Under the pieces are notes generated by a model. That model was given only the letters and a program-made list of their open reading frames with translations, did no database searches and was not told the DNA's origin. Source: Candidatus Nanoarchaeia archaeon (lineage in GTDB: Archaea > Nanobdellota > Nanobdellia > Pacearchaeales > GW2011-AR1). From it: 25,073 bases of DNA. Shown one piece after another: positions 20,662 to 20,753 of the stretch (position 1 is the stretch's first letter; the number at the start of each line of letters is the position of its first letter). Where the stretch lies: positions 1 through 25,073 of the forward strand of contig DATDUA010000001.1 in the NCBI GenBank assembly GCA_035290605.1, read 5' to 3'. Made by a program: the position numbers and the translations under genes.

Positions 20662-20753
20662 TCAAAATCTTTCAGATTTTGATAGTGCTCAGGAATTGAT
20701 ATTCCTGACATGCTCAAGAACAAGTGTTCTTGACATAATTGAAAGTTCAATTA
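20662..20753. repeat. Tandem array of four perfect palindromes (REP-like)
   Basis: TCAAAATCT-ttc-AGATTTTGA, TCAGGAAT-tgat-ATTCCTGA, TCAAGAAC-aagt-GTTCTTGA and TAATTGA-aagt-TCAATTA, starting at 20662, 20689, 20714 and 20736. Confidence 0.9.

Follow-up and report, generated by a model that had tools for sequence, protein, structure and literature searches.

A probable family of mobile DNA hairpins resembling bacterial REPINs in DPANN archaea, with one copy inserted upstream of tyw1

The hairpin array that lies between tRNA-Ala and tyw1 in this DNA is probably the 3' half of a single non-autonomous mobile mosaic element composed of bulged, perfectly paired DNA hairpins. The best reading of the data is that this element belongs to a REPIN/BIME-like family of mobile DNA hairpins, newly seen in DPANN archaea. 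An earlier note had suggested a REP-like family on the basis of the array; such a family exists in this DPANN archaeon, is large and apparently undescribed, and is far bigger than the window reveals. No description of this hairpin family was found in the literature. Its smallest moving unit is a 51-53-nt doublet of hairpins, and longer mosaics, in which a long-hairpin module named M1 is followed by hairpins A, B and B', move as blocks too.

The element in the tRNA-Ala/tyw1 spacer

The window, i.e. the whole stretch of 25,073 nucleotides that was analysed, is contig C1 of assembly G000, which comprises 712,551 bases in 114 contigs and is 66% complete. The best matches of the TYW1 protein encoded by the tyw1 ORF come from MAGs labelled Ca. 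Woesearchaeota and Ca. Pacearchaeota. The features of the spacer and its two neighbours are the following.

20503..20574 (+): tRNA-Ala(CGC), found by ARAGORN and scoring 47 bits with the Rfam tRNA model; upstream neighbour, outside the element
20598..20736 (+): whole inserted mosaic element, about 139 nt; alternative limits 20596-20734
20596..20659 (+): module M1, a long hairpin of 64 nt, ATCAAAAAAACAAtGGGG...CCCTTGTTTTTTGGA, its base carrying one run of A and one run of T
20660..20685 (+): hairpin 1, A type; foot CT/AG, bulged T at 20683, stem TCAAAATCT/AGATTTTGA, loop TTC; perfect stem-loop at 20662-20682 (9-bp stem, 3-nt loop)
20686..20710 (+): hairpin 2, B type; foot TG/CA, bulged C at 20688, stem TCAGGAAT/ATTCCTGA, loop TGAT; perfect stem-loop at 20689-20708 (8-bp stem, 4-nt loop)
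20711..20735 (+): hairpin 3, B' type, terminal module; foot TG/CA, bulged C at 20713, stem TCAAGAAC/GTTCTTGA, loop AAGT; perfect stem-loop at 20714-20733 (8-bp stem, 4-nt loop)
20736..20753 (+): hairpin 4, TAATTGA-AAGT-TCAATTA; 7-bp stem, 4-nt loop; ends 2 nt before the ATG at 20756
20756..21718 (+): tyw1, with Pfam domains PF04055 (Radical_SAM) and PF08608 (Wyosine_form); downstream neighbour, ATG at 20756

Four perfect hairpins thus stand where the earlier note had placed them, the last of them 2 nt before the tyw1 start codon. Their description as an array of four units is right for three, which belong to the family. The fourth has no TCA/TGA ends, and it is already present without units 1-3 in the congener G002, where the empty site contains the counterpart AATTGAGATTTCAATT (palindrome AATTGA..TCAATT). 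Hairpin 4 is therefore an older local palindrome in the promoter-proximal DNA of tyw1, not a family member. In the other direction, the feature reaches further upstream than the array: the element starts at about 20598 and takes in the 64-nt long-hairpin module. In the DNA fold, the ends of this 64-nt stretch, ATCAAAAAAACAATGGGG...CCCTTGTTTTTTGGA, pair to form a long-range stem, and the apical ACCACACAC hairpin is degenerate in this copy of M1. Hairpin 2 recurs as a module with an identical loop in copies of G002, and the stem of hairpin 3 holds a nested hairpin, AACTCCATCC..GGATGGAGTT, in other copies.

Chance is excluded as the origin of the array by three observations taken together. First, the whole 25-kb window contains 15 perfect hairpins with a stem of at least 7 bp, and 4 of these 15 fall within 92 nt. 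Second, G000 carries 166 perfect hairpins with stems of at least 9 bp, against about 30 in Markov shuffles. Third, the region folded as single-stranded DNA reaches -31.1 kcal/mol, with a z-score of -5.8.

A scan of positions 20300-20900 against Rfam, with E-values up to 10, returned the tRNA as the sole match. Four local candidates were also rejected. The UGAUGA/CUGA strings do not form a C/D box or K-turn, their bases being Watson-Crick paired in the stems and most spacers lacking the boxes by eye. A BHB splicing motif does not fit a bulge of 1 nt in place of the 3-4-3 arrangement, and 'TTGACAT' cannot be read as a promoter in an archaeal host. Finally, the frame that stays open through the array (20648-21718) was treated as due to chance or as permissive, as tyw1 of relatives starts at the ATG.

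An insertion absent from the same spacer in relatives

Orthologues of tyw1 were gathered from 185 loci. The same tRNA is found 5' of tyw1 in G001 and G002, which belong to the same genus, and in the Pacearchaeota record L002, and the element is absent from the spacer in all three. There, the end of the tRNA lies 10-43 nt before tyw1 (10 nt in both G001 and L002). The comparison with G002, in which the neighbouring genes and flanks are 88-92% identical, defines the insertion. G002 reads GATTAAAT|AATTGAGATTTCAATTAAAATG at the site, or GCATGATTAAAT|AATTGAGATTTCAATTAAAATG-tyw1 in a longer context; at the bar, the window carries an additional 139 bases that run from CAAAAAAAC to GTTCTTGACAT, and the empty-site junction corresponds to GATTAAAT joined directly to AATTGAAAG. 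The boundary of the element can slide by 2 nt because AT is present on both flanks. The sequence split by the insertion, TTAAAT^AATT (window positions 20590-20597 and 20737-20745), is AT-rich and lies about 25 nt upstream of the start codon of tyw1; in G002 it resembles a TATA box and may be that of a leaderless tyw1.

A separate rearrangement was noticed near tyw1 of G002 (G002:C18:2767-2863 and 4419-5472; L137, L139, L001). After the tRNA come ~30 codons from the start of tyw1, as in the window, then ~1.7 kb of other DNA and then full-length tyw1, an arrangement that looks like a duplicated tyw1 5' end around an inserted gene.

A genome-wide family with a conserved structure

Among the perfect hairpins of G000 with stems of at least 8 bp, 100 begin with TCA, and the next commonest triplet opens 18. 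When the set is restricted to hairpins with TCA/TCG...TGA/CGA ends, the family comprises 113 hairpins in 52 clusters, most of them intergenic. There are 18 singles, 20 doublets, 4 triplets, 8 quadruplets, one cluster of five and one of six, so that 34 of the 52 clusters contain two or more hairpins. The usual period is 26-27 nt and the spacers are of 5-6 nt. A genome scan for additional copies, as the earlier note had proposed, finds the same modules at about 50 other loci. A covariance model built on the hairpin doublet, R1, gives 103 matches in G000, both strands counted.

The unit consists of a 2-bp foot, one extrahelical base, a stem of 8-9 bp that opens with TCA and closes with TGA, and a loop of 3-5 nt. 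Stems are mostly of 9 bp and loops mostly of 3-4 nt, and the consensus of the 5' arm is T-C-A-R-A-A-W-Y-Y. A 2-bp foot beyond a one-base bulge is present in 105 of the 113 family hairpins, vs 37 of 212 other hairpins of the genome. The extension of the stem past a bulged C, first proposed for two units of the array, is hence real and general. The feet are of the types CT/AG, TG/CA, TC/GA, CC/GG and CA/TG, and 53 family hairpins have a 3' bulge, 52 a 5' bulge. Doublets combine the two, with a 3' bulge in the first hairpin and a 5' bulge in the second, so that both bulges face the 6-nt spacer. Given this placement, the spacer itself is composed of bulge, foot, foot and bulge.

Covariation was counted in an alignment of 21 oriented doublets with 22 base pairs and 438 cells (alignment A1). 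Paired cells amount to 98.2%, compared with 24-54% in controls in which the partner was slid, and compensatory double changes occur at 14 of the 22 pairs. One-sided changes leading to G-U were found at none of the pairs, and none of the 438 cells holds a G-U pair. The foot pair of hairpin B also covaries among copies (CG in 11, GC in 9). These counts bear out the proposal that structure rather than sequence is conserved in these units. About ten arm types recur, among them TCAGAAATC, TCAAAAATC, TCAAGATTT, TCAAAGTTC and TCAAGAAC; the congener G002 has these types too. Only about one family member in G000 has a mismatched stem.

Higher-order mosaics

Hairpins of the family are assembled into larger mosaics with a recurrent order. 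In the common layout, M1 is a long hairpin of the form ATCAAAAAAACAATGGGGC-(ACCACACAC-TAAA-GTGTGTGGT)-ttgtaaaGCCCCTTGTTTTTTGG, followed by GGACT, hairpin A, TAGTGC, hairpin B, CATGC, hairpin B' and CAT. The window element follows this M1-A-B-B' layout exactly, except for its degenerate M1 apex, and copies 86-89% identical to it are found at other loci of G002. The M1 terminus ATCAAAAAAACAATG has 35 matches with up to 2 mismatches, about 25 of which are canonical M1 copies. Mosaics can be nested further, in that the apical loop of M1 may house doublets and the loop of B' may house additional hairpins.

Other recurrent perfect hairpins travel with the TCA family and behave as more modules of the same mosaics: ACCACACCT-TAAA-AGGTGTGGT (the M1 apex), AACTCCATCC-TTTA-GGATGGAGTT, CGAAAATC-AAG-GATTTTCG and AAAAATCC-CAGAA-GGATTTTT. 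Such accompanying hairpins are seen at G000:C9:9272-9293, C47:3337-3430, C86:1654-1747 and other sites. Contig G000:C106 (4602 nt) has an exact end-to-end overlap of 141 nt made of element sequence. The idea that it is a 4.46-kb circle carrying an enzyme was discarded: its ORFs look chromosomal by eye (one is dihydrouridine synthase-like and another has a zinc-ribbon-like Cys motif), and two identical element copies at the k-mer limit of the assembler are the likelier explanation.

Presence and absence of units between genomes

All contigs of G002 (78 contigs, 1.05 Mb), which hold 122 TCA hairpins, were compared with G000. Half of the G000 clusters (26 of 52) have both flanks syntenic in G002, with a flank identity of 87-96% for all but a few, and the length of the gap differs between the two genomes at 24 of these 26 loci. 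Alignments in both directions gave 45 filled/empty junctions. The earlier note had named the lack of unit-number variation among relatives as a result that would count against it; with empty tyw1 sites, 24 of 26 gap lengths differing and 45 junctions, unit content clearly varies. Only two family hairpins are common to syntenic positions of G000 and G002, and in both the loop is reverse-complemented.

The junctions identify the smallest moving unit. One genome has and the other lacks whole doublets of 51-53 nt that end precisely at their feet, without target duplication, as at C58:2859, C8:1830, C67 (52 nt), G002:C33:4307 and G002:C25:14238. Examples of their foot-to-foot ends are CT..CA, CC..TG and CC..AG. 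Left flanks often end with TGA or A and right flanks often begin with T, in a sample of about 10 in which stop codons are a confounder. Some doublets occupy other hairpins: that at G002:C25:14238 sits inside an arm, and another in G037 fills a loop whose homologue in G000:C9 is empty. Genes can also be entered. The 51-nt doublet at G000:C8:1830-1880 (L236) lies in frame within a Fic/DOC-family gene, immediately ahead of the Fic domain, where it adds 17 residues (TSKSKDFDGIQKSKISDE in place of K) and leaves the ORF open; the orthologue in G002:C14 (L237:217-1086) is intact without these residues. In G078, a tRNA (L105:338-516, minus strand) has a 108-nt intron in the anticodon loop, and this intron holds a complete doublet (404-471). 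This tRNA has the anticodon CGU by eye and scores 46.9 bits with the Rfam tRNA model, and it was missed by ARAGORN.

Larger units move as well. M1-type mosaics of 165-232 nt are missing as whole blocks in the G000/G002 comparison. They have AT on both flanks and one AT in the empty site (window, C9, C47, C81, C98), and their ends are imperfect inverted repeats (TCAAAAAAAC / TCAAGAAC). The flanking AT may represent a target duplication of 2 bp, of the kind left by cut-and-paste DDE elements; if so, it argues against one mechanism for all members. Recombination or gene conversion between copies could be the source of some of the presence/absence differences.

Metagenomes were considered for the tyw1 locus itself. 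Twenty groundwater or soil runs were listed with at least part of the locus, and four of them were aligned as contigs. The filled allele is identical in all four, and neither an empty-site allele nor an excision nor a change in unit number was seen at the locus in these contigs, which drop rare variants. At the M1 terminus, three of the four runs reach a summed contig depth of 1600-1770, vs 13-21 in the flanks, a measure of how plentiful the M1 module is in those samples.

Distribution among relatives

R1 matches 42 of 100 relatives at E <=0.01 (43 of 101 genomes with G000). Both congeners have dozens of matches, and the model also hits 25 of 60 genomes of the family as well as other families of the order. 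In a further sample of 150 high-quality genomes taken across the phylum, 24 match at E <=1e-4, all of them listed as the same class. Inspected hits from nine other genera retain TCA/TGA ends, feet and a spacer of the TAGTCA/TAGTGC type but have different arms. A census of MITEs placed one Woesearchaea genome among those with the highest MITE densities in archaea (PMC11602168).

The search for a mobilizing enzyme

The earlier note had proposed to test for an association with HUH/Y1 transposases, and this link was not supported. Y1/HUH (PF01797) has no match in the three genus genomes G000, G001 and G002 (66, 69 and 88% complete) or in G047, G086 and G026, whereas control genomes score. The domain is present in 25 of the 101 genomes. 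Hairpins are found in 18 of these 25 Y1-positive vs 25 of 76 Y1-negative genomes, an association that is weak and confounded. Flanking TCA..TGA hairpins were seen at none of 16 Y1 loci inspected in 12 relatives; the IS200-like genes of relatives have other, unrelated and GC-richer hairpins. A RAYT/IS200 link was accordingly rejected, the highest-copy genomes lacking Y1 and the Y1 loci carrying other hairpins.

None of the enzymes searched for, namely Y1/HUH, TnpB, two DDE families, serine recombinases and reverse transcriptases, is present across the high-copy genomes. TnpB is above the cut-off in 7 of the 101 genomes, none of them in the genus. DDE_3 and resolvase (serine recombinase) are absent from the same five high-copy genomes, and DDE_Tnp_1 was found only in G002. 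Reverse transcriptase was found only in G002 and G026, with none in G000; the RVT_1 matches (G002:C3:27391-28046 and G026:C4:47779-48117) possibly belong to diversity-generating retroelements. A search for multi-copy ORFs in G000 and G002 returned no IS-like family; one small ORF family passed (3 copies in G000, 2 in G002). The sole recombinase found in all five high-copy genomes is a XerA-like integrase, with one per genome and two in G047. A single-copy enzyme could have been missed because the genus genomes are MAGs of 66-88% completeness; the chance that it is missing from all three is about 1% if losses are independent.

How the elements may move

The targets of insertion are AT-rich intergenic spacers, loops and arms of other hairpins, tRNA introns and, rarely, genes in frame. 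The window copy landed between tRNA-Ala and tyw1 after the lineage split from its congeners. By analogy and from the insertions into loops, movement may proceed through folded single-stranded DNA. It would then depend on a structure-specific enzyme supplied in trans that reads the stem, the bulge and the TCA/TGA ends, as in REPIN/RAYT or IS200/IS605 'peel and paste', and that is no recognizable Y1/HUH, DDE or serine recombinase. The elements are presumed to be mainly selfish, with transcript effects, such as those of the M1 T-runs, being secondary.

A more specific proposal, which we hold only tentatively, is that the doublets are the cis elements of an undescribed archaeal transposition on folded ssDNA, with a substrate defined by its shape. 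The catalyst would be either an unrecognized enzyme family or a co-opted housekeeping enzyme, for example of the XerA type. With such a process, the rarity of mismatched stems may mean that, whenever an element moves, one arm serves as the template for copying or repairing the other.

DNA or RNA, hairpin or duplex

The elements could instead be host-selected at the level of RNA or transcription, the arrays and M1 acting as bidirectional terminators or insulators, 3'-end protectors or processing signals that spread since compact DPANN genomes need punctuation. We judge this improbable. It is in keeping with the intergenic location of nearly all copies, with the persistence of arrays across the whole class, and with the T6-T7 runs that lie on both strands of M1 at the base of the long stem. 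These runs make an incidental terminator effect possible. ARAGORN found 14 tRNA genes in G000 (0.71 Mb), with intron-containing tRNAs probably missed, and 4 of these 14 have an array within 100 nt past their 3' end (C1, C7, C10, C23), which is suggestive only. Several observations argue in the opposite direction. Intrinsic terminators would be expected at gene 3' ends and oriented with transcription, yet doublets between co-directional genes are in the same orientation in 8 cases and in the opposite one in 7, and by gene gap 22 clusters are tandem, 7 divergent and 4 convergent. G-U pairs, as noted, are missing from the alignment, and copies occur in a coding frame and in a tRNA intron. Gene gaps with elements have a median of 494 nt, vs 75 nt for those without, and the orthologous gaps of the congener mostly have no element, so no locus needs one. 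Taken together, the balance of orientations, the presence in all gap types, the lack of G-U and the flipped loops speak for elements selected or generated as DNA, with both strands involved, rather than for an RNA function tied to one strand.

DNA-level action could also concern the duplex. The sequence ...YTGA-N6-TCAR... is an inverted repeat around a 6-bp core, similar to the core sites of tyrosine recombinases (dif, lox), that a XerA-like recombinase or another dimeric protein might bind, and the hairpins would be a by-product of tiling. The constant 5-6-nt spacers with invariant flanking TGA/TCA agree with this, as does the XerA-type integrase being the only recombinase in all five high-copy genomes. 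It is nevertheless very unlikely: the arms are non-complementary across the spacer and perfectly complementary across the loop in 113 cases, the feet covary over the whole hairpin and not over the spacer, 18 clusters are single hairpins without a partner, and XerA is universal in archaea, including the 58 relatives without a match.

Lastly, a structured RNA leader or tRNA-tyw1 co-transcript element that controls tyw1 specifically, close to the other reading of the earlier note, is in keeping with an array that follows a tRNA gene, ends 2 nt before the ATG and has a frame open through it. It has next to no chance of being correct, however, and is already refuted as a conserved regulator, the spacers of G001, G002 and L002 being without the element, the same modules standing at about 50 unrelated loci in both orientations to the neighbouring genes, and Rfam giving no match.

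Implications

For a REPIN/BIME-like mobile hairpin family, the reading preferred here, several consequences follow. Across a whole class of ultra-small DPANN archaea, the family occupies intergenic DNA that is itself scarce, and even strongly reduced genomes thus accommodate mobile DNA within promoters, tRNA introns and proteins. When a hairpin array lies upstream of a gene, within a tRNA intron or within an ORF in these archaea, annotation should treat it as a mobile insertion rather than as a locus-specific regulator. Because of these elements, MAGs fragment at intergenic repeats, and the same elements are fast-evolving markers for strain typing. They also offer a practical starting point in the search for a new structure-specific DNA enzyme.

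Comparison with known systems

Repetitive hairpin and double-hairpin elements are described from fungal and sponge mitochondria (PMC2800124, citing Paquin et al. 2000). They share with the archaeal elements two-hairpin units, the lack of flanking duplications, a location in intergenic DNA, introns and occasionally genes, a patchy distribution among close species, and an enzyme that is likewise unknown. They differ in residing in organelles and in being unrelated in sequence, and they are not known to have a conserved bulge-and-foot geometry.

Integron attC sites resemble the present units in their conserved ends, variable self-complementary core and extrahelical base, and the earlier note had drawn this parallel. 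It does not extend to membership: there is no integron integrase, the only integrases being XerA-like, no cassette ORFs lie between sites, and the units are in tandem at 26-27 nt and scattered over the genome. The comparison with classical MITEs is mixed: the M1-type mosaics have imperfect inverted ends and AT on both flanks, whereas the doublets have no target duplication, DDE_3 is absent and DDE_Tnp_1 occurs only in G002. Rickettsia palindromic elements, said to have been described by Ogata and colleagues in 2000, are reportedly of 100-150 bp and able to insert in frame in protein genes, adding a peptide segment. The 17 residues in the Fic protein, one verified case, are a comparable in-frame addition, but the Rickettsia elements are bacterial, larger and unrelated in sequence.

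Further parallels are found with single-stranded DNA transposons and with REPINs. IS200/IS605 elements and the gene-less PATEs (PMC3119063) likewise have ends defined by hairpins, no target-site duplication (here for doublets) and insertion at sites that are likely single-stranded. Unlike them, the present elements are far smaller (51 nt) and have ends that are unmatched by the Y1 loci of relatives, and TnpB is absent from the genus. REPIN and REP-BIME sequences are short bacterial palindromes mobilized by RAYT transposases of the Y1 HUH type (PMC3116915, PMC2817692, PMC3733652). The archaeal family resembles them in its high copy number of short extragenic palindromes, the doublet as replicative unit, regular spacing, mirrored orientation in mosaic clusters, subfamilies set apart by complementary stem changes, bulged or unpaired bases in the hairpin, and fast turnover between close relatives. 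There are also differences. The host is a DPANN archaeon; each unit is a separate perfect hairpin, whereas a REPIN doublet folds as one long hairpin; TCA/TGA ends with feet of the CT/AG type take the place of a GTAG or CGTC tag; G-T pairs, common in GTAG REPs (PMC3733652), are not found; and RAYT genes are missing from the genus and from the highest-copy genomes. Membership of the REP/RAYT, IS200/IS605-derived and attC groups thus fails on their defining features, and the behaviour of the family is most like that of REPINs. Hairpin repeats of the REP/REPIN type have so far been described as bacterial and tied to RAYTs; a comparable family appears to be active in ultra-small DPANN archaea, in which nearly all insertion sites differ between two congeners.
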